From Candidatus Heimdallarchaeota archaeon B3_Heim (lineage in GTDB: Archaea > Asgardarchaeota > Heimdallarchaeia > Hodarchaeales > Hodarchaeaceae), in NCBI GenBank assembly GCA_003144275.1, contig NJBF01000014.1:55218-87217 (forward strand): a stretch of 32,000 bases of DNA, read 5' to 3'. A model generated the notes under the pieces. It did not search any database, was not told the origin of the DNA, and saw only the letters and a program-made list of their open reading frames with translations. The position numbers were made by a program, and so were the translations under genes. Below are positions 5,754 through 26,747 of the stretch, in pieces (the first letter of the stretch is position 1; each line of letters begins with the position of its first letter).

Positions 5754-8252
5754 TTGAAAAAACAGATCAAAGAGAGAGATCCCTTTCCTGAGTTTATCAA
5801 ACACATCACACCATATATTTATAGCATTATTCGGAAATTGAAAGACTCTAGTGGTACTAATTCAGAATCAGAAGTTTTTTTCGAGAATATATTTCTTTCA
5901 GAAAATGTAAATGCAACAGATCAAAAAATTAATTCAATTTCAACTGTTATGGCGGTTTTGATATATGATTGTCTCTGTATAGGATTAAAGACTCTTAAGA
6001 GGGTCGAATTGCTGGGTGAACATTCGTACTTCAATTCAATTCACATGATATTTGATAGAATTACTGAAAAAAACTTAGATATCCCTCTGTTTCACTCACC
6101 AATATTTCCTCTACACTCTCTTATTGAACTGTTCGTATCTAAACCTTATATTTCAAATGAATGTCTAAAATTCCTTTTAGAAAATACTAGCAATTCAATA
6201 AACTATTCCCAAATGAAGTTCCCTTATTACTATGATAGGAGTATCGGGCAAAATAAAATAAAAAACCAAGGCCAAGTTTTTACTCCGATCTCTGTCATAG
6301 ATTTTATTTTTGATCAGGTGATTGTTCCTGAAACTGAGATAATTCTTGATCCTGCAGCTGGTACTGGTGTTTTTTTACTTCGTGCTTTAGAAAACTTACC
6401 CAAGATTGACCTTTCTGAAGTAATAAAAGTAATTGCAATTGAGAAAGATCCGATACTCAGTCTCATATGTGAGAGCGCATTAAAAGTATTTTGCAAATTA
6501 CAATCACAATCAATCGAATGTCAAGTATATAATCAAGATTTTTTTCAAAGTGCCTCTATTTTAAGTGAGTTACGGTCTGAAAAGCATGGAGTTATTGCTA
6601 TTTTAATGAATCCGCCATATACTCGTCAAGAGCTAATTCCAATTAGGGAAAAAGATTTCATAAGGAATAGAGTTTCTTCTACAAGCGTTATTTCGGATTT
6701 TAAACGGAAATACACTTCTTTTCGAGTTTCAGGTCAATCTAGTTTATATATTTATTTCATCCTTTATATTTCTGAGTTTTTAAACCCCCAAGATCGTTTA
6801 GGATTGATTATTCCTAATTCATGGATGGATGTCAGATATGGTTTAATGCTTCAACTTTTCTTATTAGATCATTACAATATTGAATTAATTGTATCCACTC
6901 GTTTAGAAAAGTTAATTCCCTCAGTAGAGGTTAATACAGTTATTTTGACACTTGAAGTAAAGAGTCACATGCAAAGTCTTGAAGTGAGCTCATCCTCTCA
7001 TGAAGTTAAGTTCATCAGAATAAATTCCAAAGCTGATCTCAAGCTCCTTGCTAATTACGGGATCAAAAAGGCACTTCCAATGATTAAGGATAGTGTGTTT
7101 GCATCTGTTATGGAGAGTAAATTACTTCTAGAACCAAAATGGGGAATATTCGTAAAAGCCCCAAGGTATTTCCTTGATTATCTTGATAATACAAAAGATA
7201 ACATGAAATTTTTAAGAGATTATGCCTCAGTTCGCAGAGGTTTTACTAGTGGCGCAAATGATTTCTTTTATGTTGGAAAACCTGGAAGAATGAATAGGTT
7301 TTTCGTTTCCAGTATAGATTTAAAAGATGGAAGTTTAATTTTAAAACCGCAAAACAATGAAATTTTGCATAGATTACAGGAACAAGGTTTTCTTTTAGAG
7401 GAGGAGTCATTTACCATAGAGAGAGAGTATTGGATGCATTCTGACACGAATAATCATGAATTCCAGAAAGAATCAATCCTATATACTACTCCTTATAATG
7501 AAATATGGATCCCAAACTACCTAATAAAATCACCTAAGGAACTTGAAGGATTCAAAGTTACAAGCGAAAATTTAACTTATGTTGTCATTATAATACCTAA
7601 GAAAAGTTCTCTTAAGCTTAAACCAGGAATTAGAAAATATATTAAATGGGGAGAAACATGGAGGCCCATAAAAGGAAACCCCTATGCCTTAAGGACAACT
7701 TGTGCGAATCGTAAATTTTGGTACTCGCTACCTGACGAGTATTATCATTTTTGTCCAATACTTTGCATAATGACAATAAATGACCGCTATCCATTTTTTT
7801 ATAATCCTCATAATTATTATTTTGATGCTCGGTTATATGGCATTACTCCTCTGAGCGAAATAAAAATAAATGAAGAAGATCTGACTACGTTTCTGTTTCT
7901 ATTTCTGAATACTGTTTTTGTCTCAATTCAGATAGAACTATCAGGACGCGAAAATCTTGGAGAAGGAGGACTGGATGTAAAAGTATATGAATATCAAGAT
8001 ATTAAAATTCCACAATTCAAGTTTCTTGGCAAGAAATCGTTCTTGGCCTCGCTTTTCCAAAAAACATTGCTGTCCAAACCCTCATCATATATAAAAAGTG
8101 AACAACCATCATCTAAACAAGAATTAGACCAATTTCTCAGGGAAATCTACTCACTTTCGGACGAAAAAATAGAAAAAATGCATAAATCATTGCAGAAAAT
8201 TGTCCAAGCTCGCATTGATAAAGCTAAGACAGATTTTTCCTACATTTCATGA
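5754..8252 (+). CDS. Large gamma-class N6-adenine DNA methyltransferase (Eco57I/type IIG-like MTase plus TRD), no evident nuclease domain
   Basis: Motif X GQVFTP, motif I LDPAAGTGVF, motif IV MNPPY, then a TRD-like region (RRGFTSGANDFFY). TTG start preceded by GGTGAT at 5745-5750. Confidence 0.87.
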   Translation: MKKQIKERDPFPEFIKHITPYIYSIIRKLKDSSGTNSESEVFFENIFLSENVNATDQKINSISTVMAVLIYDCLCIGLKTLKRVELLGEHSYFNSIHMIFDRITEKNLDIPLFHSPIFPLHSLIELFVSKPYISNECLKFLLENTSNSINYSQMKFPYYYDRSIGQNKIKNQGQVFTPISVIDFIFDQVIVPETEIILDPAAGTGVFLLRALENLPKIDLSEVIKVIAIEKDPILSLICESALKVFCKLQSQSIECQVYNQDFFQSASILSELRSEKHGVIAILMNPPYTRQELIPIREKDFIRNRVSSTSVISDFKRKYTSFRVSGQSSLYIYFILYISEFLNPQDRLGLIIPNSWMDVRYGLMLQLFLLDHYNIELIVSTRLEKLIPSVEVNTVILTLEVKSHMQSLEVSSSSHEVKFIRINSKADLKLLANYGIKKALPMIKDSVFASVMESKLLLEPKWGIFVKAPRYFLDYLDNTKDNMKFLRDYASVRRGFTSGANDFFYVGKPGRMNRFFVSSIDLKDGSLILKPQNNEILHRLQEQGFLLEEESFTIEREYWMHSDTNNHEFQKESILYTTPYNEIWIPNYLIKSPKELEGFKVTSENLTYVVIIIPKKSSLKLKPGIRKYIKWGETWRPIKGNPYALRTTCANRKFWYSLPDEYYHFCPILCIMTINDRYPFFYNPHNYYFDARLYGITPLSEIKINEEDLTTFLFLFLNTVFVSIQIELSGRENLGEGGLDVKVYEYQDIKIPQFKFLGKKSFLASLFQKTLLSKPSSYIKSEQPSSKQELDQFLREIYSLSDEKIEKMHKSLQKIVQARIDKAKTDFSYIS

Positions 8253-8265
8253 AAATTCAAATTCA

Positions 8266-10866
8266 TTATTTATTTAGGAAGGATTCAATTTCTGAGATTT
8301 CCTTTTTTGTCAGATTGTATAACTGATAGATTACTCGATCAATTTCTTCAATTAAAATATGTTTTTTTTCACTCGGTGAGTTTTGAATTTGTCTTGAAGC
8401 AGTTACTATGTCAATATACTTCTGAGAATCACGGGGTGGTAATACCAGAGGTAGATTTCGAATTTGAAGTGGATAATAATCATACATTCCTCCCAAGTCT
8501 TTAAACATACACCGAGCATAAAACGTAAGTGTTTTTGAATTCAATAAGGCTACTAGGAATAGTAAAGTGTTTGTATCGTTGTAATCTTCGTTAGGGATAA
8601 TCCAAACAACATCCTTTGAGGAAAGACAACCTTGATCATCAATCGCAAAAGTATTCCTCCTTGCTTTGTAGGGGGTAACAATCTTAACTCCTTGCCAATC
8701 CATAGTGTTCCGTTCATCTCCATCTCTCCAGAGGTAATACTTAGTAACTCTACTTCTGTTTAGAAGGTCATCTTTATTATCTTTCAAATACTGATAGGCA
8801 TTCTTTGAATTTCTAATTTGCTCGTGACGAAATTTTGGAGCATATAAGACTTCCATTCCTTCTCGCTTTATGAAAAATGTTTTTATCTCCCCCCCTTTTA
8901 ACCATGGTCTATAGTGAGAGGAATTAAGACGTAAACGCATAGAAAAAAAATAAGGAACTTTGGGAGCAAAAACTTTATCACAACCAGTTTCTATACCTTT
9001 GCTGAGTGATGATATTTCATTTAACCTCCAATTTGACATTCTGATTATTTTTTCAATGGTCTTCTTGGTGTTAAGAGAATACAATGTCCATTTCTCAGAT
9101 TTTAGTCCAATTTGAGATATTTTTTTTCCTTTAATATCCTCAAATTTTGTTTTAGAATACTTATAAGCATGAAGTTCTTCATTAGACGTCCATTTTTTAT
9201 TTTTTAGCAGCATGAAGCAAGTTTTAATATTGATTTGAGGGAAGATAAGCAATTCGTTAAAGTCATGGATTTCAAGGAGAGTTGCTCTACGTATGATAAA
9301 TTCTCTAATTTGCTTAGCATAAACACTGGAAAGAACAGATTTAGGTAAAAGAAATCCTAACACTCCATAGGGACTCAAAATTTGCATCATTCTTTTAGTA
9401 AAGAAGTAGGATAGATCACTGTTTCCGCTATAAATTTCAGGATATATTTTCTTAATCTTTAACCGGGTAACCATTGATAAATCAGTTAACGCTATAAAAG
9501 GAGGATTTCCGATAATAATATGGAATTCTGGGGGAATTTCAGGTTCCTTTATATGATCATTTACAGGAAAACACCAAGGTGTGAGGTCACCAATCAGACT
9601 TTCATTCTTTTGCTGAATTTCGTTGGGAAAGACTATATAAGTATCATTTGATGGACTAAAGTAATCGGATTCTGAAAAATGTACTTTTTTCCTAATGTCC
9701 TCCTCTAAATAGCTCTTACATTCATTCCACTCACGTTTTGTTCCTTCTATAATGAAATAATAAGCATTCATAACTTTGCTAAACTTTCTGTGATAGTCAT
9801 TAATGATTAGAGTTTTTTCATAAAAGGATGATTTAGATGGAAGCTTGTAAACCCCTATTTTCCTATCGAAAGCAGAAGAGTGTTCTTTTCTTGCCTTCGC
9901 TCTGACTTTTGCACTCGACAGTAAGTGATTTTCCCTGTCATTATAACCGAATAAGGAATCTCCTAGATAAATATTGTCAGCTAGATCCCCATACGGCTCG
10001 ATTTCTGACATCCAATCTTCTAATATCCATAATCGTAACTTTATTTTAGTGATGAAGATACCGATAGGATCTTTATCAAACCCATAAAGATTGTGCTCAA
10101 GTATTCTCTTTCGTAGATTAAGAGAGGAGGAATCTAGATCTTTTTTCCTGAAAATACCATACAAAATATTGCCTGCAGCAATTAAAAAGGTGCCTGTTCC
10201 AACAGTAGGATCAAGAAGATATATTTTTTGATTCTTCTTTGTTCTAGTTCCTGATTGTGAATTTATTTTCCACCACTGACCAATTGTCCTTTGGGCTATT
10301 TGCTCAGCGAGGTAATAAGGAGTGTAGACTATTCCATCAATTTTTTTTTCTTCTTCCCCGTATTCTCTTAAAAAATTTGCAATTCTGTCAAAAAGATCAA
10401 AATTTATTGCAGTTAAAGATGAGTCATTTAGACTACTATGATTTTTCTGAAAAAAAGAGTCCTTTAATATCGTTTCAGCATAATCCCCCCAATCTACCGT
10501 CTTTAAAATCTGTAGTTCATTGGCTAGAGGTTTGTTGTAATAGTCAGTAACCTGATCCTGACTTGGTAGAAGAGGAAAATATTTGTTTAATTGAAGGATA
10601 ATGGCATAAGGATCATCAAAATAAGAAAATACCTCTTTCCAGTTCTTAAATTCGTAGTTTAGCGTCTTATTGATATTTTTTATACCAAAGAACATCAGAG
10701 TGATAAAATGAAGAACTAATAAATCCTTAAACCATTGGTTCGAAAAATAGGATACAGAAATTTCAAGATCAAGATGTTTAATTTCTTGGATTAATTGTTT
10801 TATCCTGTTTACAACTGAATTCGACGTTCTCTGTTTTGGATTATATCGCTTCAGCTGAAAAGACAA
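8266..10866 (-). CDS. Second large gamma-class amino-DNA methyltransferase with a TaqI-C-like TRD, no evident nuclease domain
   Basis: GIVYTP, LDPTVGTGTF, IIGNPPF, DLSYFF, KGIETGCDKVF, C-terminal EEIDRVIYQLYNLT. TTG start with GGAGA upstream. Confidence 0.87.
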   Translation of the reverse strand: MSFQLKRYNPKQRTSNSVVNRIKQLIQEIKHLDLEISVSYFSNQWFKDLLVLHFITLMFFGIKNINKTLNYEFKNWKEVFSYFDDPYAIILQLNKYFPLLPSQDQVTDYYNKPLANELQILKTVDWGDYAETILKDSFFQKNHSSLNDSSLTAINFDLFDRIANFLREYGEEEKKIDGIVYTPYYLAEQIAQRTIGQWWKINSQSGTRTKKNQKIYLLDPTVGTGTFLIAAGNILYGIFRKKDLDSSSLNLRKRILEHNLYGFDKDPIGIFITKIKLRLWILEDWMSEIEPYGDLADNIYLGDSLFGYNDRENHLLSSAKVRAKARKEHSSAFDRKIGVYKLPSKSSFYEKTLIINDYHRKFSKVMNAYYFIIEGTKREWNECKSYLEEDIRKKVHFSESDYFSPSNDTYIVFPNEIQQKNESLIGDLTPWCFPVNDHIKEPEIPPEFHIIIGNPPFIALTDLSMVTRLKIKKIYPEIYSGNSDLSYFFTKRMMQILSPYGVLGFLLPKSVLSSVYAKQIREFIIRRATLLEIHDFNELLIFPQINIKTCFMLLKNKKWTSNEELHAYKYSKTKFEDIKGKKISQIGLKSEKWTLYSLNTKKTIEKIIRMSNWRLNEISSLSKGIETGCDKVFAPKVPYFFSMRLRLNSSHYRPWLKGGEIKTFFIKREGMEVLYAPKFRHEQIRNSKNAYQYLKDNKDDLLNRSRVTKYYLWRDGDERNTMDWQGVKIVTPYKARRNTFAIDDQGCLSSKDVVWIIPNEDYNDTNTLLFLVALLNSKTLTFYARCMFKDLGGMYDYYPLQIRNLPLVLPPRDSQKYIDIVTASRQIQNSPSEKKHILIEEIDRVIYQLYNLTKKEISEIESFLNK

Positions 10867-16799: not shown

Positions 16800-19025
16800 A
16801 TGGAAAATATCCAAAAATTACAGAAATATGGCTCATTAGAAAGCTTTGCACTTGATCAAACAGAAGAATTTCTTCGACCAAAGACCCCCCTAGATTATAT
16901 TTTTACTCTTGCACTCATTTTCTGGTGTATTGTAGCTGTGATATTTTCTGGTGATTCACCTATACGAGCAACATTATTTGGACTTGTTCTCATTTTATTT
17001 TTCGTAATTCCTATTTCTAAATTCTTTTCAAATGATGAGAGAGATATTCCTTCCCCACTTAATAGGGCGGTGAAAATACTCATCGGATTTCTCATCATTA
17101 ACATTTTTTCGTCAGCCTCTGTCACTTTTGAACTCTGGGATATGAATTTTCCAGATTTAACGTATTACGAATTTGAATCTTTGATGGCGTGCATTCTCAC
17201 TCCACTAGCAATTATTTGGAATAGATTCGATTTGAAAACCTTACAATTCGGCTATTTTTATTATGTTGGTGAAGTATTCCGTGGTTTTTGGATAGCTACT
17301 ATAGTCATTTTCATATTAAAGGGTTTTTCCATCCCGTTTTTACCTGCAAGTTTCAATTTCGAATTAGAACTATTACTTCTTGCTGCTCTCACATTTAATA
17401 TCCTCGGGATTATTCTGCCTGGTAACTCACCAAGACAAAATGTTTCAATAAATACTCTTCTACGTCAGAATTTTGCACTGAAGAATAGAGTAGAAAGGAT
17501 TCGTGATGGATTCCTCTCTTCATCTGTAATTCTACTGGCATTCTTGTGGCTTGGTTGGATAGTAAACAGAAAAGAAGTCATTCAATATTTAGCGTTTTTC
17601 TTCTTGATAATTGGGGTGTTACTCTTATTGGCACCTCAAAGAAAAAGAACTAATGGGCTAAATTCAGTTCTTAATTCGCTTACAGGTAAGATTGTTGATC
17701 CTAACAGTCAAGTTGGTAGTCGAATTAATGAATTCGCAAGTGCTATTCAGGAAACATCCTTTGAGAAACCTGCACGAGTTTTTACTATCCCAACAGATGA
17801 CATGAAGATAATAAGCAAAGGTAAAACGTCCATTTCAGCTAAAAAAGGGGTAATAGCGGTCCCTACTGTTACAGAAAAAGGAACAACTCTTGTTTTAATG
17901 GGAAAATCTGAGGTATCGACAGAAACAGAAGAACAAGAGGTGTCTACCAAAGAAGTCGATGGCACAACAACAGTCTGGGTTCCACCTGAAGAATGGGATC
18001 AGATTAAACTTCAGCTCCAATCGAAAAATGTCAGTGAACTAACTGAAAATGAGTTAATGTCTGCAGGCCTTGATTCAGCTTCTGAATTATTCACTAATGT
18101 CAAACAAGCAATATCTCAATTAAAAGACTGGAAGGGCCCTCAAGGGATTTTTTCTTCGGTATTTGATACAACTCCATCAAAATATACCATCACAGAAACT
18201 AAAGATTATACATTAGTACGATTACCAGGAATCTTTGTTTTTGAAAAGCTCGGAGTTGAGCTTGTTCAGATATTAGGAGGAGTAGTTCAAGTTGTAGAGA
18301 TAAAAGGGGTAGGAGAATATGTCAAAATTCTCGGAGGGTTGATTACCGTTTTGGAAACTCCCGATTACTCCTTCGTACAAACACCATTTGTGTCTGTATT
18401 GGAAACTCCTGCAGGGGAAATTGTAAAAGTTTTTGGTATACGTATACAAGATGGAGAAAAAATAGATTTGAACAAAGCTCGCAAAGAAATTACGATGGCT
18501 CAAGAAAGGTTTGATAGCCTCTTTACTGCTCAAGTGGAAACTCTTTTCTCAGGCGAAATGCCGAATTTGCTGTTAACAAACTCTGAGGGGGAAAAGGAAG
18601 GTTTCTTAATTGGTGACTCTGAATATCTAAGTGATCAGGATGTACAACCAAAACGAAAAAGCAGAAAAGAAGATACAAAATCAACTTCCTCAAAGAAGAT
18701 AATAGGCCCTTCAGTTTTTACAAAAACAATTACTATAGGACCACAGACTGACCAAAAAACCGAGGAAAAACAAAAAATTCAGCCAGTAGAATATCAGTAT
18801 GATGAGGAGGGTATTCCAATTGATCATCCCGAGCTTTTATCATTGGATAACGATCTAGCTCAAGTTGAGGATTCTTTGGAAAAAGCAGATGAAAAATTTC
18901 TTAATGACGAAGTATCAGATCAAAAACATGAGGAAATCATTAAGCGATTAACACTGAAAAAGTCTAGAATAACAAAAGAACGGGAAAAATTAGTGGAAAA
19001 AATCAGGTTAAGATTTGTTGATTAA
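16800..19025 (+). CDS. Hypothetical membrane protein: ~8 N-terminal TM helices, soluble region with beta-hairpin-like repeats, C-terminal helical hairpin
   Basis: About eight hydrophobic segments in the first ~280 aa, five 16-19 aa repeats at 18198-18456, and a charged helical C-terminus. Confidence 0.8.
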   Translation: MENIQKLQKYGSLESFALDQTEEFLRPKTPLDYIFTLALIFWCIVAVIFSGDSPIRATLFGLVLILFFVIPISKFFSNDERDIPSPLNRAVKILIGFLIINIFSSASVTFELWDMNFPDLTYYEFESLMACILTPLAIIWNRFDLKTLQFGYFYYVGEVFRGFWIATIVIFILKGFSIPFLPASFNFELELLLLAALTFNILGIILPGNSPRQNVSINTLLRQNFALKNRVERIRDGFLSSSVILLAFLWLGWIVNRKEVIQYLAFFFLIIGVLLLLAPQRKRTNGLNSVLNSLTGKIVDPNSQVGSRINEFASAIQETSFEKPARVFTIPTDDMKIISKGKTSISAKKGVIAVPTVTEKGTTLVLMGKSEVSTETEEQEVSTKEVDGTTTVWVPPEEWDQIKLQLQSKNVSELTENELMSAGLDSASELFTNVKQAISQLKDWKGPQGIFSSVFDTTPSKYTITETKDYTLVRLPGIFVFEKLGVELVQILGGVVQVVEIKGVGEYVKILGGLITVLETPDYSFVQTPFVSVLETPAGEIVKVFGIRIQDGEKIDLNKARKEITMAQERFDSLFTAQVETLFSGEMPNLLLTNSEGEKEGFLIGDSEYLSDQDVQPKRKSRKEDTKSTSSKKIIGPSVFTKTITIGPQTDQKTEEKQKIQPVEYQYDEEGIPIDHPELLSLDNDLAQVEDSLEKADEKFLNDEVSDQKHEEIIKRLTLKKSRITKEREKLVEKIRLRFVD

Positions 19026-19059: not shown

Positions 19060-21000
19060 TTATGAGATGATTAATGCTTTTAGATCTGAAATTATTGCCT
19101 CAATTTGATATTTTGATTCAGCTAAAATGAATAGATCATTTTTCAATTGCAATTTGCGAATTCGATCCCTCAGAACTTTTTGAATTTCGTCCTGGGAGTC
19201 TAATGCGTTATTTTCAGCCCATTCTATTAATAATGTAACTGAACGGGTGAAATATTCTACCGTTTCCCTTTCTTTTTGGTTCATCAGGGATACTAAACCT
19301 GCGTTATGATATATTGTACTACTCCGTCTCCAACTAATCAGTGCGTTGGTCAGAGACCGATTTCTTTGGTTTAAGATAGAATCTGTCTCCTCCATATTTG
19401 ATAAAATTTCAAATGCGGTGTAAAAATTGCTCGCAGCTTCTTCAAAATTTTCTATATTAAAGGAATTGTTTGCAAAGAGAATTAACACAGGAATTAATTC
19501 AGTTGCAGGAGCTTTGGCAATAGTAAGTAGTTTTTTTGATCGGGAGAGACAATCTCTGGATAGTAAATAGTGATTTTTTTCCATTTCAATCCGTCCAATT
19601 TCATAAGTTATCAACCCTAACAATCGTTGTAGAAGTTCATCGCATTGATCTTCAGGAAGGATGGAAGCAGCATTATTTAATAATGATAATTTTGATTCTA
19701 TATTTTTTACCGTTTGAGCACCATCATACAACGTTTTAAGAGCTGATTGGAAATTGTCCACACGTTTAAATAATGAGGAAGCATGTATTACAAGAGTTAT
19801 TCCTTTGTTTTCATTTTCTAAGGAAAAATATACTTTAGCAGCTAGCATTAAAGATGTAGCAGCTTCCTCGAGCCCTTCATCACTCTTTTTAAGGAAATCA
19901 GCAGCTCTGATTCTTTGTTCAGCAGATTTACGCGTCAAGCCGAGGGCATATGCTGGATTTTCTAGTTTTTCCTTTTCCGCTTGGAGCATTAACTTACTGG
20001 CATATGTCGAAGTATATCTTGCCGCAATCTGACTATCAATTTCTTCAATCAACTTTACTGCTTTCTCAAAACATCCGTTTGCTTCTTCAAAATGATTGAG
20101 ATCTTGATATACTAGTGCCATATCATACTGTATTGAAGCTTGCGATTTAGGGTCTTTTATCCAGACAGCTCCACTTTGAAACAATTCAATTGCATGATCA
20201 TTATCACCTAATTGATACGCCATTTTTCCTGCTAAACAGAAAGCCTGTCCTGACTTTTGAAAATCATGAGCTCTAGAGAAAGCATCAGTAGCTTGTTTGA
20301 AAGCATTTTGTGCATCTTGGAAGTTGTTAGCGGCTTGGAAAATGTTCCCAGATAAAATAAATGCTTCACCCGCTGCTTTATCATCAATATTTTCTAACCG
20401 ATTAGCCACTTTCATAGCTGTCCAAAGTTGATTACGATCTTTGAGTTTATACCATGCCTCACTTGCTGTTTGTAAATCTTTAAGGGCACGAGGAATAGCG
20501 TAATCCGAATCTATATCGGTAGGATCAAATTGGGGTTTTTTCAACGGAGGGTCGCTAATTGAATCTGTAATTTTTTGCCATACTAATCTTGCATTAAAGG
20601 CATCTTTTTCTTCCTTTAATATATCTAAATATGTAAAAATATGTGTATCAAGATGTGTATTTAAAAGATTTGCACTGTCGTGTTTACCAATTATAGCTAG
20701 AAAAAATGGTCGTTCTTCTCCACGAATTGAAGGATCAAACCATGCATCAAATGCCACTCGGGCGAGAATATTTTGTCCTAAACTCAACAAAGGAACACTA
20801 AATTCAGTCCTCTGAGATTGGCCATGTTGACCAAAAACTGTTACTGAAGCTAAATATATTTGTAATGCTATTGATTCAGGGTCGTCGAAAGCCAATGGAT
20901 ATAGAGAAATTATCGATGGTCCCGAGATGTCGTCCCATAGAACCGCTAATATCACATGGTTAAACTGCTGCATATCAAAATGAGGTGAGCTTTCGGACAA
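19060..21000 (-). CDS. uDENN/longin-like N-terminal domain fused to alpha-SNAP-like TPR repeats
   Basis: N-terminus ILAVLWDDISGPSIISLYP ... DPSIRGEERPFFLAII, then helical repeats such as AAGEAFILSGNIFQAANNFQDAQNAFKQA. Start is TTG 21000 (abutting the upstream stop) or ATG 20973. Confidence 0.75.
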   Translation of the reverse strand: MSESSPHFDMQQFNHVILAVLWDDISGPSIISLYPLAFDDPESIALQIYLASVTVFGQHGQSQRTEFSVPLLSLGQNILARVAFDAWFDPSIRGEERPFFLAIIGKHDSANLLNTHLDTHIFTYLDILKEEKDAFNARLVWQKITDSISDPPLKKPQFDPTDIDSDYAIPRALKDLQTASEAWYKLKDRNQLWTAMKVANRLENIDDKAAGEAFILSGNIFQAANNFQDAQNAFKQATDAFSRAHDFQKSGQAFCLAGKMAYQLGDNDHAIELFQSGAVWIKDPKSQASIQYDMALVYQDLNHFEEANGCFEKAVKLIEEIDSQIAARYTSTYASKLMLQAEKEKLENPAYALGLTRKSAEQRIRAADFLKKSDEGLEEAATSLMLAAKVYFSLENENKGITLVIHASSLFKRVDNFQSALKTLYDGAQTVKNIESKLSLLNNAASILPEDQCDELLQRLLGLITYEIGRIEMEKNHYLLSRDCLSRSKKLLTIAKAPATELIPVLILFANNSFNIENFEEAASNFYTAFEILSNMEETDSILNQRNRSLTNALISWRRSSTIYHNAGLVSLMNQKERETVEYFTRSVTLLIEWAENNALDSQDEIQKVLRDRIRKLQLKNDLFILAESKYQIEAIISDLKALIIS

Positions 21001-22782
21001 TTAGATAATCTCCATGAATTTAAGTTTAAGATGTCTGATGTCAATTAAAGCCTTTTTAGAATCTGAACTAGTTTCTAGCATTTGGATTTCCTTGACATTC
21101 TTAATCTCAATCGTAGGTGATAGAGGTGTAAATGATTCTTGGCCAGACATACGTATAATTATGAAAATTTTTTCTTTTGACTCCAAATTCCAGGTTAAGA
21201 GAGAATTTGATTTTTCTCGAACTATGGTCGGCCGAAGATGTATTGGATCAACAAGAGATATACTATAATCAAGTGGTATGCGATCAATTAACGTGATTTC
21301 ATTGGTTGACATATTTTCAATTGTATACATCCAAATGTACTCACAATCAAATGAATCTATAAGTGGTTGTGAAATTTTATTACAGGTGAGTTTACCTGGA
21401 TCAGTTTCAACTTCAGTTATATAGTGGCGAGTTAACGGTTTCTCCTTAAAAACATAATTTGAGGAAAAAGTATCACCAGGGGGTAGATTACTAAATATCC
21501 ATCTAAATAAAGTTGAATCATGTGTTGGAATCCTAACAGGACGAATTTTTTGAGGAGAATACGCTTGATTCACAACTAATTCTGGAGGGATAACGTCTTC
21601 AATCAGTATTTCTTGGATAGCTCCTCCTGTTGTATTAACGAAGTTCAATTGAGCCTCTAAATTCTGATGCAAGGAATGGTATAAATTCAAAACTACAACT
21701 TGACGTTCTTTTCGGAGTATGATCGATCTTTCTACTCGTTTACGTAACACATACTCAATGGTGCCTGTTTTTCCTGGGATCAGTTTTTCAGCTTTCCAAG
21801 TGAATACTGTTCCTTCCTTTGTTTTTTTTCTGTTGTTTAATTCAAAATCTGTCTGGAAATCGACTACTTCCCACCTATATGGAATTCGATCTACTACTTC
21901 AATATCTACGAGGTCTTCTTCGTATTCATTTGTAATTTCCGTTTTAGCAGCATATTCGAGGTCTAAAGTGTCAGTAACATTCATACGTTCTGTAGAAGGT
22001 GCTTCATCTTGTAAATGTTCTGTATCTTCAACTTTTGAGTCTAATTTTGACTCCGTTTCTTTATCTGCCTCCTTTACTTTATTGATGCTGATTTTAGGGT
22101 TAATAGATGATCTTGGTGACAAAAATTTTGTTTCTCCCCTTTGATCTTTTACTACAGCATCACTTCTTATTTTCTTGTCTGATTTTTTTCTTACATTTTC
22201 CGAGACTGCAGCTAATACTGCGAAGGAATTCATTTTAGAGGGATCATCAGTCTTTAATTGAGGGACAATAAAATCTTGACGATTGAAATCAATATCAGTA
22301 TTATTCACATAATCACCGTCATCAAGAGGTAATAAATCTTCTTCTTCCTCCAGAGGTAATATCTTGATATCTGGAAGCTCTTCCTCAATATCAGTATGAG
22401 CAGATTCATCCTCTTCCTGAATGTTTTCCTCATCTGCAGATATTTTTCGTTCTAGGGCATTTAATGCCATCTTAAATTGATAAGTTGCAGAAGTAAAACC
22501 ATATTCTTTTCCCTTATCGACAAGAATTTTCGCTGTTTCAATATCTTCAGTCATTAGATGCCTAACGATAGCTTTTCCATAACAACTGGCAGCCTTATCC
22601 ATTTTCTTAATTTCTAGATAGAAATCTCCAGCAATGGTTAGATATTGGCCTGCTTTTCTTCTGTTACCTTTTGAATCGAAGCATTTAGCTGTTGATTCAT
22701 AGATTTCTGCGGCAATCACCAGAGAGTGGCTAGTAGCGGTTTCAGCTTCCGTTGCTAATTGTTCACAACTTATTTCTGTCAT
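21001..22782 (-). CDS. SNAP-like helical N-terminus, acidic disordered linker, three DUF11-like Ig/beta-sandwich domains
   Basis: AAEIYESTAKCF...KAASCYGKAI; a D/E-rich linker; three ~100-aa units marked by IEVVDRIP, ILIEDVIP and ITLIDRIP, each with a downstream F/L-x-W. ATG 22782 preferred over TTG 22812. Confidence 0.75.
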   Translation of the reverse strand: MTEISCEQLATEAETATSHSLVIAAEIYESTAKCFDSKGNRRKAGQYLTIAGDFYLEIKKMDKAASCYGKAIVRHLMTEDIETAKILVDKGKEYGFTSATYQFKMALNALERKISADEENIQEEDESAHTDIEEELPDIKILPLEEEEDLLPLDDGDYVNNTDIDFNRQDFIVPQLKTDDPSKMNSFAVLAAVSENVRKKSDKKIRSDAVVKDQRGETKFLSPRSSINPKISINKVKEADKETESKLDSKVEDTEHLQDEAPSTERMNVTDTLDLEYAAKTEITNEYEEDLVDIEVVDRIPYRWEVVDFQTDFELNNRKKTKEGTVFTWKAEKLIPGKTGTIEYVLRKRVERSIILRKERQVVVLNLYHSLHQNLEAQLNFVNTTGGAIQEILIEDVIPPELVVNQAYSPQKIRPVRIPTHDSTLFRWIFSNLPPGDTFSSNYVFKEKPLTRHYITEVETDPGKLTCNKISQPLIDSFDCEYIWMYTIENMSTNEITLIDRIPLDYSISLVDPIHLRPTIVREKSNSLLTWNLESKEKIFIIIRMSGQESFTPLSPTIEIKNVKEIQMLETSSDSKKALIDIRHLKLKFMEII

Positions 22783-22798
22783 TATTGATTCTCCCAAC

Positions 22799-23182
22799 CT
22801 ATTTAATCGCAACGAAGGTAGATTTTATAATCAACACTTCGGAAACTCGTGGTGTATAGTCATCTAACGGATCTTTATCATCATAAGGAATTTCTTGGAA
22901 TGTACGGGAGAAAATTACCCAGGCAACTCTTTTATTATCACTTGTGACAAATCGTTTTATTTTTTGATACGCATCCTCTGGTTCATCTTGAAAATATTTG
23001 ATAGACAAATCTTTTACTTTTTGCAGAGAGGTTTTTTCCTGATCTTGTGCATATAAATGCATACTTTCTAACAGATCGGCTTCTTTTGGATTTATTTTTT
23101 TTTCTTTTAACATTTCGACTATTAAGGATCGATTTGTTAAAGAATTCTTTGCCTCTGCAAAAGTTACATTGATAAATGGCAT
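22799..23182 (-). CDS. Hypothetical protein, first gene of the three-gene cluster
   Basis: 127-codon ATG ORF ending 16 nt before the next ATG; no motif recognised. Confidence 0.7.
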   Translation of the reverse strand: MPFINVTFAEAKNSLTNRSLIVEMLKEKKINPKEADLLESMHLYAQDQEKTSLQKVKDLSIKYFQDEPEDAYQKIKRFVTSDNKRVAWVIFSRTFQEIPYDDKDPLDDYTPRVSEVLIIKSTFVAIK

Positions 23183-25575: not shown

Positions 25576-26439
25576 TTACTCGAGGTTTATTCCCAAGAAA
25601 GTGTTTCCAGGACATGTGTAATAGATAGAATAACTTGCAGCGATTGGTATTTCTAGATCATCAAGAGCCTGCACGGAATTCATGTTTGGGGATAAATAAA
25701 TCACAAATATTGGTGTCGCTGTTTTGCAAGTAGCTGTTTTCGTATTTCTTTTAATGGAATATAGTACGATTTTTCCTTCGGTGGCAGCTGATGATGCATG
25801 AAGCATCGTGAGAGTTGTTTCAGATTTAGATGCGGGGTACAAAAGTTTTGCTTTCGAATTTGTCACTTCTGAATCTTCATCTGCAGCAAAATATAAGATT
25901 GAAGTTTCTTTTTCTTCTTTCAGCTCAACACGTTCTTTGGCCTTAACTTCTTTCGGTTTGGTTTTTGAAATTGGTGGAGGAGGAGGGGAAACAGGTTTTA
26001 TTACTTTTTCTCCCTTACTTTTATCCGTAGCTATCTTAGCTTTTTTAGGTTGTGCTGTTTTAGGGGGAGGGGCTATTTCTTTTATAGACGCGGCTTGTAC
26101 TGCAGGTGTTACGTCTAGTAACGAACTAGGGGACACAGGTGACGCTTCTAGCCGTATCATAAAATCTTTGAATTTTATCGTCTCGTTTCCTTGATCTTCA
26201 GTGGAAATTCTATGGGTCATTCCTTTTTCAAGACGCATTTGTCGTGCTATTTGACTAGAGATGAAGCGTTTTCTAACAGATGAATTTTCTCCTGTCCAAA
26301 TATAGATTTGTCTTTTTTCCTCATCAAGAAAGATTAACACTTCTGTGTCTTTTAGATCTTCAGCGCGAGAGGTAAACTTAACAGGAACATATTCCCCATC
26401 CATACTCGGGACGTATACGTGAAATTTGCTTTCAGTCAT
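25576..26439 (-). CDS. Single gelsolin-like domain, Pro/Lys-rich linker and an unknown C-terminal domain
   Basis: LKDTEVLIFLD..IYIWTGENSS...EDQGNETIKF matches the gelsolin repeat pattern; linker contains APPPK and SPPPPP. ATG 26439 preferred (GAAGGA upstream). Confidence 0.82.
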   Translation of the reverse strand: MTESKFHVYVPSMDGEYVPVKFTSRAEDLKDTEVLIFLDEEKRQIYIWTGENSSVRKRFISSQIARQMRLEKGMTHRISTEDQGNETIKFKDFMIRLEASPVSPSSLLDVTPAVQAASIKEIAPPPKTAQPKKAKIATDKSKGEKVIKPVSPPPPPISKTKPKEVKAKERVELKEEKETSILYFAADEDSEVTNSKAKLLYPASKSETTLTMLHASSAATEGKIVLYSIKRNTKTATCKTATPIFVIYLSPNMNSVQALDDLEIPIAASYSIYYTCPGNTFLGINLE

Positions 26440-26747
26440 AAATAATCCTTCTAACATCAAAAACAAGTGCTTCCTCTAAAAACATTTTGAAATATCATAA
26501 TCCTAAATCCGAATCTCAGTTCAATATTGCTTCCTTGTGGACGTATTTCTTAAAATTTTATTTGAAAAGGAGGAAAAACAAAACGCGTTTTGATTATTTT
26601 AGTTTTTACTTGGATTGGGGAAACTACTACTCCATTTCAACGCAAAAAAAATCTATTATCGGAGTATTACAAGAAATTTACCAAAACGAAATAATTTTAA
26701 TTTATCAAGTTTTACTGAATTATTGTCTTTAAGGTGGTTGACTTTAC

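Follow-up and report, generated by a model that had tools for sequence, protein, structure and literature searches.

A conserved three-gene operon of Hodarchaeales encodes a TPR-fused longin resembling those of eukaryotic GTPase-activating complexes

The DNA analyzed here (the window) is a stretch of 32,000 nucleotides from Candidatus Heimdallarchaeota archaeon B3_Heim (contig NJBF01000014.1, positions 55,218 to 87,217 of the forward strand), the minus strand of which carries three adjacent genes, referred to as A, B and C, at window positions 19060–23182. Our results reveal that a single operon, conserved in Hodarchaeales, encodes A, B and C, and that C combines an N-terminal longin domain with a long TPR solenoid; as judged by its predicted structure, the longin belongs to the folliculin/SMCR8/NPRL2/C9orf72 class. 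Longins of this class make up the catalytic pocket of the GTPase-activating protein (GAP) complexes of eukaryotes built around folliculin, GATOR1 and C9orf72-SMCR8, which are lysosome-linked switches of Rag and Arf GTPases and the origin of which is unclear; Hodarchaeales is the order closest to eukaryotes in some phylogenies. We tentatively favor the proposal that A, B and C act together as a soluble cytosolic complex, which would regulate an Asgard small GTPase through the C longin. The occurrence of the longin class in Asgard archaea has already been published; no description of the longin-TPR fusion or of the three-gene A-B-C operon was present in the literature searched, which covered a part of the journals.

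In the direction of transcription, the operon comprises gene A (P0003; 22799–23182, minus strand), which encodes a soluble protein of 127 residues, gene B (P0002; 21001–22782, minus strand), which encodes a modular, scaffold-type protein of 593 residues counted from its ATG, and gene C (P0001; 19060–21000, minus strand), which encodes the 646-residue longin-TPR protein. All three were assigned from their open reading frames (ORFs) and homologues, and B and C also from AlphaFold2 models. As read from the sequence, the A stop codon (TAG, 22801–22799) is followed by a spacer of 16 nucleotides (22798–22783) and the ATG of B at 22782; the B stop codon (TAA, 21003–21001) directly abuts the TTG start of C at 21000, in one reading frame and with a gap of 0 nucleotides (junction 20998–21003, minus strand). 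The co-orientation of the genes, the two gap lengths and the TTG placed right after a TAA had been described in a first-pass annotation of the sequence, and are confirmed. The TTG start of C is supported by close orthologues, the first codons of which (MSE...) coincide with it; translation might alternatively begin from an ATG located nine codons further into the gene (M10). No membrane-spanning segment is predicted from sequence in A, B or C, and the action at membranes that the first-pass annotation had envisaged is not indicated.

The B/C junction comprises a single in-frame stop codon and a fully open spacer in six of the seven loci read, and coordinate arithmetic indicates an in-frame B-C arrangement for 18 of 22 Hodarchaeales genomes, with spacers of varying length; these counts come from close relatives and hence are no independent test. 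Such a junction might have arisen when one gene was split long ago, or the stop codon might be leaky. A true B-C fusion gene, the idea of which was prompted by the long open frames, was ruled out, the loci having a real stop codon. No RNA data set is listed as containing this stretch. Two contigs of ~235 nucleotides from a run labelled as metatranscriptomic, and flagged as 'probably DNA', lie inside gene B; they were not used as evidence.

Homologous clusters or homologues number 68 for A, 71 for B and 72 for C, the nearest homologues of all three being from Candidatus Hodarchaeales archaeon, and in several genomes the homologues carry consecutive NCBI locus tags. Near-identical DNA is present in marine sediment and cold-seep metagenomes. 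Synteny and co-occurrence, which had been suggested as a check of the module, were followed across Hodarchaeales, the presence/absence searches for the A and B genes being made within the order. The triad is co-located in 23 of the 24 species genomes, with A, B and C each present as a single copy, on the same contig and adjacent; the sole genome without the triad is 74% complete and is without all three genes, i.e. presence and absence coincide exactly. With a profile of the C N-terminal longin, strong matches in an open frame of ~646 residues were obtained only in the window's family among 201 Asgard genomes, with weak longin-only matches elsewhere.

Such a pattern might in principle arise from conserved neighbors without shared function, that is, from synteny inherited in a narrow lineage, with no complex being formed. 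In close relatives synteny extends over the whole neighborhood, IF-2B through PolB; one genus accounts for 21 of the 24 genomes in the sample of the order; and at one LC_3-type locus (L002:4653-5843) a DDE transposase gene is present on the opposite strand between the B and C orthologues, both of which are intact. However, the genes flanking the triad are not the same throughout: in close relatives they are NUDIX, ABC, a 753-residue membrane ORF and PolB; in LC_3-type genomes TiaS, ABC and PolB; in another lineage Methylase_S, ABC and a PK_C-like gene; and in a fourth lineage BC and isochorismatase. Because adjacency persists while the flanking genes differ between lineages, the A-B-C triad is a conserved unit, and distant A and B orthologues, at ~30% identity, are still found in the same gene order. 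Together with the exact coincidence of presence and absence, and with gaps of 0–16 nucleotides and B and C sharing one frame in most genomes, this renders inherited synteny without shared function a quite improbable explanation.

The AlphaFold2 model of C (mean pLDDT 86) comprises the longin, a disordered linker and a TPR solenoid of ~24 helices. The longin domain (residues 12–148; 20557–20967, minus strand), as defined by model topology, Atlas matches and conservation, has the strand-strand-helix-strand-strand-strand-helix-helix order of the longin fold (E15-23, E27-34, H41-56, E65-70, E78-88, E96-106, H107-134 and H137-148; pLDDT 76–90). In comparisons using the Atlas's own model of residues 1–150, i.e. 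with predictions on both sides, it matches clusters of Folliculin, SMCR8, NPR2, Avl9 and DENND11 proteins with template modelling (TM) scores by query of 0.64–0.73, and, in the same range, clusters of Asgard longin-GTPase fusions; the individual values were 0.72 for a Folliculin-bearing archaeal cluster, 0.72 for an SMCR8-like, 0.66 for an NPRL2-like, 0.68 for an Avl9 and 0.64 for a DENND11 cluster. Conservation within C is highest in the longin (62% mean identity, compared with 40–52% for the TPR region), which has 26 invariant columns. Of the longin/DENN regulator proposed in the first-pass annotation, the longin thus stands, whereas the AlphaFold2 model has no DENN module, the longin being followed by the TPR solenoid instead. 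No second longin was recognized in A or B by Atlas searches or in the B model.

The turn between strands 1 and 2 carries the sequence W-D-D-I-S-G-P (residues 22–28; 20917–20937, minus strand), which includes a WD and a GP motif. W22, G27 and P28 are invariant in 35 C orthologues, and W22, D23, G27, P35, G57, F84, D85, D89 and R93-G94 are invariant across paralogous Asgard longins. Strand 2 of GAP-type longins characteristically begins with a GP motif, C9orf72 has an essential WD just ahead of its GP motif, and a 2025 survey found that Heimdallarchaeial longins have the GP motif and an arginine finger too (PMC12290439). For Asgard longins that carry these GP and arginine motifs, the survey proposes a possible kinship with the longins of the eukaryotic switches, and possible GAP activity, and names no partners or clients (PMC12290439). 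When a profile of C orthologues and paralogous Asgard longins was compared with human C9orf72, it aligned over the whole domain with a non-significant E value of 0.7, the WD-x3-GP residues falling on C9orf72 W33-D34 and G38-P39 (WDNILGP); a profile of the C N-terminus alone gave chance matches only with PDB sequences.

R93-G94, located in the loop between strands 4 and 5 (20719–20724, minus strand), is invariant in C orthologues and in the paralogous longins. On the basis of this conservation R93 is a candidate catalytic arginine, and it may be equivalent to the arginine finger of folliculin (R164), SMCR8 (R147) and NPRL2 (R78). C9orf72, the only solved chain to align, is without an arginine at this column.

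The fusions and neighbors of C longin paralogues provide the main link, an indirect one, of this longin class to GTPases. In genomes of the same genus, a C-type longin occurs in proteins of ~300 residues behind a response-regulator receiver domain (L010, L011), and in one of them the receiver-longin gene (L010:1052-1948, minus strand) is convergent with a gene for a Ras/Rab-like GTPase (L010:234-947, plus strand). In another Asgard family (L013, L014, L015), large proteins combine an Arf-like GTPase, a C-type longin, PAS and a histidine-kinase ATPase. The B3_Heim genome (94% complete) has no other members of the C longin family, including no receiver-longin copy. Longins of 'FLCN/SMCR8-type' or 'NPRL2-like' character have already been noted in Asgard archaea (PMC12290439; 10.1101/2020.10.19.343400), and the 'NPRL2-like longin' fusions described by Liu et al. 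fit the paralogues reported here (10.1101/2020.10.19.343400). The C paralogues share with the Asgard longins of Liu et al. an association with Arf-like or Ras-like GTPases and with two-component domains.

These ties bear on a reading without any GTPase, which we regard as fairly unlikely while taking it seriously, i.e. that the operon encodes a TPR-based scaffold or assembly factor, in which the longin would be a dimerization or docking platform only, the complex organizing another cytosolic process, e.g. protein folding or turnover, or attachment to the cytoskeleton. The use of longin and roadblock domains as platforms is widespread, most residues of B and C lie in generic interaction modules (TPR, Ig-like sandwiches), and the operon has no linked GTPase gene. 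Against this, it is the longin rather than the TPR region that is best conserved in C, the longin keeps exactly the WD, GP and RG positions that are tied to GAP pockets, and its paralogues are fused to, or located beside, GTPases.

The AlphaFold2 model of B (mean pLDDT 74) comprises, in order, five TPR-like helices, an acidic disordered segment, a small alpha/beta element, a second disordered segment, three beta-sandwiches spanning ~300 residues and a short terminal helix. The N-terminal five-helix TPR region (residues 1–119; 22426–22782, minus strand) is SNAP/HAP40-like and contains invariant C34, C67 and R74; with VIA-align it was best aligned to HAP40, Sec17 and gamma-SNAP, with Z-scores of 11.9–13.6, which lie within the tool's quoted noise range for helical repeats. 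Residues 120–231 (22090–22425, minus strand) comprise the acidic disordered linker (120–163; 37% conservation) and the small alpha/beta element (164–231; 46%). A cryptic second longin or roadblock domain was considered for the latter; an Atlas search with residues 136–245 gave unrelated folds at TM scores of ~0.3 only, and led to no assignment.

Residues 276–577 of B (21052–21957, minus strand) form, according to the model and to Foldseek and Atlas searches, three Ig-like beta-sandwiches of the DUF11/CARDB type. The comparison of this region is based on whole-model searches with Foldseek and the Atlas, the VIA-align lists being filled by the TPR parts. Foldseek against AFDB clusters gave many DUF11 proteins (E 5e-9 to 1e-5, probability 0.97–1.0), in agreement with a DUF11-type fold, and the Atlas gave clusters in which 86–100% of members carry DUF11 or CARDB, at low whole-model TM scores of 0.17–0.27. 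With the DUF11 sequence model (PF01345), one of 40 B orthologues gave a match (E 8e-4). DUF11/CARDB proteins such as chlamydial OmcB, AF_2028 and MJ1393 share with B the fold of its three sandwiches and I-x-D-x-I-P-like patterns; they are typically secreted or present at the cell surface, whereas B has neither a signal peptide nor a membrane segment and its sandwiches are fused to a cytosolic TPR.

Among Swiss-Prot models, Foldseek aligned B to OmcB and to TRAPPC8/10/11/13. A helical repeat with several Ig-like sandwiches after it is common to B and TRAPPC8/9/10/11/13, and B is encoded beside a longin-bearing protein; the solenoids of the large TRAPPIII subunits serve as binding sites for longin subunits (PMC8204870). 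One might envisage a TRAPP-like tether or exchange factor, in which B would correspond to the large TRAPP subunits and the C longin would attach to a solenoid as TRAPPC2 and TRAPPC2L do. We give this very little credence. The Foldseek probabilities for alignment of the B TPR and sandwiches to TRAPPC8/C10/C11/C13 (0.57–0.75) and to yeast TRAPPII (7u05_A, 0.14) are accompanied in the former case by TM scores of 0.10–0.14, and DUF11 proteins rank higher; the B solenoid has only five helices; the sandwiches are closer to DUF11/CARDB; the C longin is of the folliculin/NPRL2 type and not of the sedlin type; and no genes of the Bet3 and sedlin families, i.e. of the TRAPP core, are present in the operon or among its neighbors. 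We read the likeness of B to TRAPP subunits as one of shared architecture, weak in extent and not implying homology. Similarly, the adaptor-like nature assigned to B in the first-pass annotation reduces to an architectural likeness, its beta domains being closer to prokaryotic DUF11/CARDB proteins than to coat or TRAPP parts.

More distant relatives of B point in the same direction. A profile of the B beta region gave 161 matches in a library of 1.84 billion proteins, those beyond the orthologues including proteins of ~520–550 and 650–1,000 residues. None of the 10 distant matches examined has a TRAPP family, and their Pfam matches (TPR, SNAP, MarR and a glycoside-hydrolase model) are all sub-threshold; three carry an organism name, in each case an Asgard archaeon (Lokiarchaeota or Promethearchaeota), and none a eukaryotic name, although the library is without names, such that eukaryotic relatives of B may exist. 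In another Asgard lineage (L017:1711-5328), a B-like protein of 548 residues is followed by a TPR protein of 643 residues that is unrelated to C by BLAST. The ends of the latter protein, when looked at by eye, suggested a roadblock or longin domain; Pfam and hhalign gave nothing.

The TPR solenoid of C (residues 169–645; 19066–20496, minus strand) is defined by the model and by Pfam TPR and SNAP matches, and a Foldseek search of the PDB with the whole C model gave TPR proteins only, including OGT, SPY and LGN. The earlier statement that two of the genes share SNAP-like repeats holds for C, in which residues 209–345 pass the Pfam SNAP model (PF14938; 28.9 bits compared with a cut-off of 25; model positions 33–170 of 282), but less so for B, which is below the cut-off (15.1 bits, E 0.016; model positions 33–83). 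The weak SNAP match recurs in 39 of 40 B orthologues, and B residues 18–69 align weakly with C residues 224–275 (hhalign probability 38%, E 3e-4). The SNAP model is itself unspecific, in that it fires in four of 14 control prokaryote genomes (over the cut-off in two) and at eight places in the B3_Heim genome; because of this, 'SNAP-like' means little more than TPR of a certain spacing. The N-terminal helices of B and residues 209–345 of C resemble the TPR sheet of alpha/gamma-SNAP and HAP40; the coverage is partial, and the whole SNAP architecture (a nine-helix sheet plus a C-terminal bundle, ~290 residues) is found in neither protein, B having five helices and C a partial match, both without the C-terminal bundle.

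Heimdallarchaeia, including Hodarchaeales, have been reported to encode SNARE-like proteins, the genes of which occur in three Heimdallarchaeial groups and the complexes of which are not disassembled by murine NSF, in a preprint in which SNAP is unmentioned (10.64898/2026.10.19.760048). It is conceivable, if very unlikely, that B and C are SNAP-like adaptors for such proteins, their TPRs recruiting a Cdc48-type ATPase in order to disassemble SNARE bundles. The presence of the SNARE-like proteins, the passing of the SNAP cut-off by C and the proximity of the B N-terminus to HAP40, Sec17 and gamma-SNAP would fit such a role, as would a sub-threshold SNARE-motif match in this genome (G000:C38:42990-43142; 23.2 bits compared with a cut-off of 26.8), located in an open frame of 240 residues. 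These points are offset by the firing of the SNAP model in control prokaryotes and elsewhere in this genome, by the restriction of the matches to a part of the model, and by B Z-scores that do not leave the noise range. The distributions also differ, SNARE-like genes being reported in the three groups whereas strong matches to the C longin profile in a ~646-residue frame are confined to one family among the 201 Asgard genomes sampled.

Protein A, which had been regarded as an orphan, is instead as widely conserved in the order as its partners. The alignment of its orthologues has 17 invariant columns and the motifs MPFIN, KINPKE, V(S/A)WV(I/L)FSR and NPLxxYxPR. It has no match in Pfam or NCBIfam and no usable feature match in the Atlas, the Atlas model being poor (pLDDT 0.53), with structural matches at TM scores of 0.29–0.43. 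Conservation combined with the lack of a family and of a confident model is a pattern common for small obligate subunits, and A may be one.

In the regulatory complex that we propose, C would be the active subunit, which would engage a small GTPase through its longin and would most probably be a GAP; the longin retains the WD and GP motifs of the pocket, and R93-G94 could act as an arginine finger. The TPR solenoid of C, the TPR and sandwiches of B, and A would constitute a scaffold that holds the complex together and binds partners. Binding between A, B and C, the identity of the client as a GTPase, and GAP activity rather than guanine nucleotide exchange factor activity or simple binding, are all presumed here; the stoichiometric nature of the complex, as put forward in the first-pass annotation, is suggested by gene order alone. 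A complex prediction run without controls on C residues 1–640, B residues 1–230 (a span that leaves out the B beta region) and A gave ipSAE values of 0.13 and 0.00, compared with a threshold mark of 0.32, and is uninformative either way.

Gene order, co-occurrence, domain folds and motifs are what the analysis shows, and the operon unit, the longin class and its motifs, the ties of the paralogues to GTPases and the lack of membrane segments all argue for regulation of a GTPase by the A-B-C complex. Several observations weigh on the other side. Much of the synteny evidence comes from a single genus, and there is no GTPase gene within the operon or the window. None of the 35 C orthologues has a Pfam or NCBIfam match for residues 1–160, and at the sequence level a solved GAP longin is reached only through the non-significant alignment to C9orf72. 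Conservation is the sole basis for the choice of R93 as candidate catalytic arginine; R81 might be chosen instead, but the paralogues do not conserve it. In addition, in the GAP complexes of eukaryotes two longins, each with a DENN module or an equivalent, act as a heterodimer, in contrast to the one longin with TPR found here.

Comparison with the eukaryotic complexes in question, i.e. FLCN-FNIP, GATOR1 NPRL2-NPRL3 and C9orf72-SMCR8-WDR41, reveals that C has in common with them the longin fold, at the TM scores of 0.64–0.73 given above, and a WD-x3-GP turn that links strands 1 and 2; its conserved Arg-Gly pair may be a further shared feature. Differences are that C has neither a DENN module nor the C-terminal module specific to NPRL2, but ~480 residues of TPR solenoid instead, that the operon encodes one recognizable longin as opposed to the two of the eukaryotic heterodimers, and that B, with its TPR and DUF11 sandwiches, and the 127-residue A have no counterpart in the eukaryotic complexes. 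A more far-reaching proposal, which we consider unlikely, is that the triad represents an archaeal precursor, with one longin and presumably active as a homodimer, of the longin GAP complexes found in eukaryotes, and that it switches off an Arf-related or Rag-like GTPase. One polypeptide would then combine a C9orf72-type WD-GP face with an SMCR8/FLCN-type arginine, and would assemble on scaffolds of TPR and Ig-like domains, in place of which DENN modules were later adopted in eukaryotes; a B-C fusion protein might also be formed occasionally, only one in-frame stop codon lying between the two genes.

The operon defines a set of three co-inherited proteins that can be co-expressed and tested against the small GTPases of the organism. 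If the C longin does act as a GAP, the system would provide knowledge of a GAP-type longin working in an archaeon, and of the attachments of such a longin before DENN modules existed. If it does not, the longin class would have uses besides the control of GTPases.

Adjacent to the triad and convergent with it is an ORF for a membrane protein (16800–19025, plus strand; 741 residues), which has 7–8 hydrophobic segments and a large soluble C-terminal part and matches no Pfam family. The first-pass annotation had tied this protein, described as having eight transmembrane segments, to the module. It adjoins the triad in close relatives only and is absent from LC_3-type and other distant loci, by which membership as a fourth component is ruled out. 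Elsewhere in the window, an ORF of 296 residues (25576–26466, minus strand) has a weak Gelsolin-repeat match that is below the cut-off (E 0.003), and two convergent large genes (5754–8252, plus strand, and 8266–10866, minus strand) encode restriction-modification methylases of the Eco57I/N6_Mtase type, the second with a TaqI-like specificity domain.

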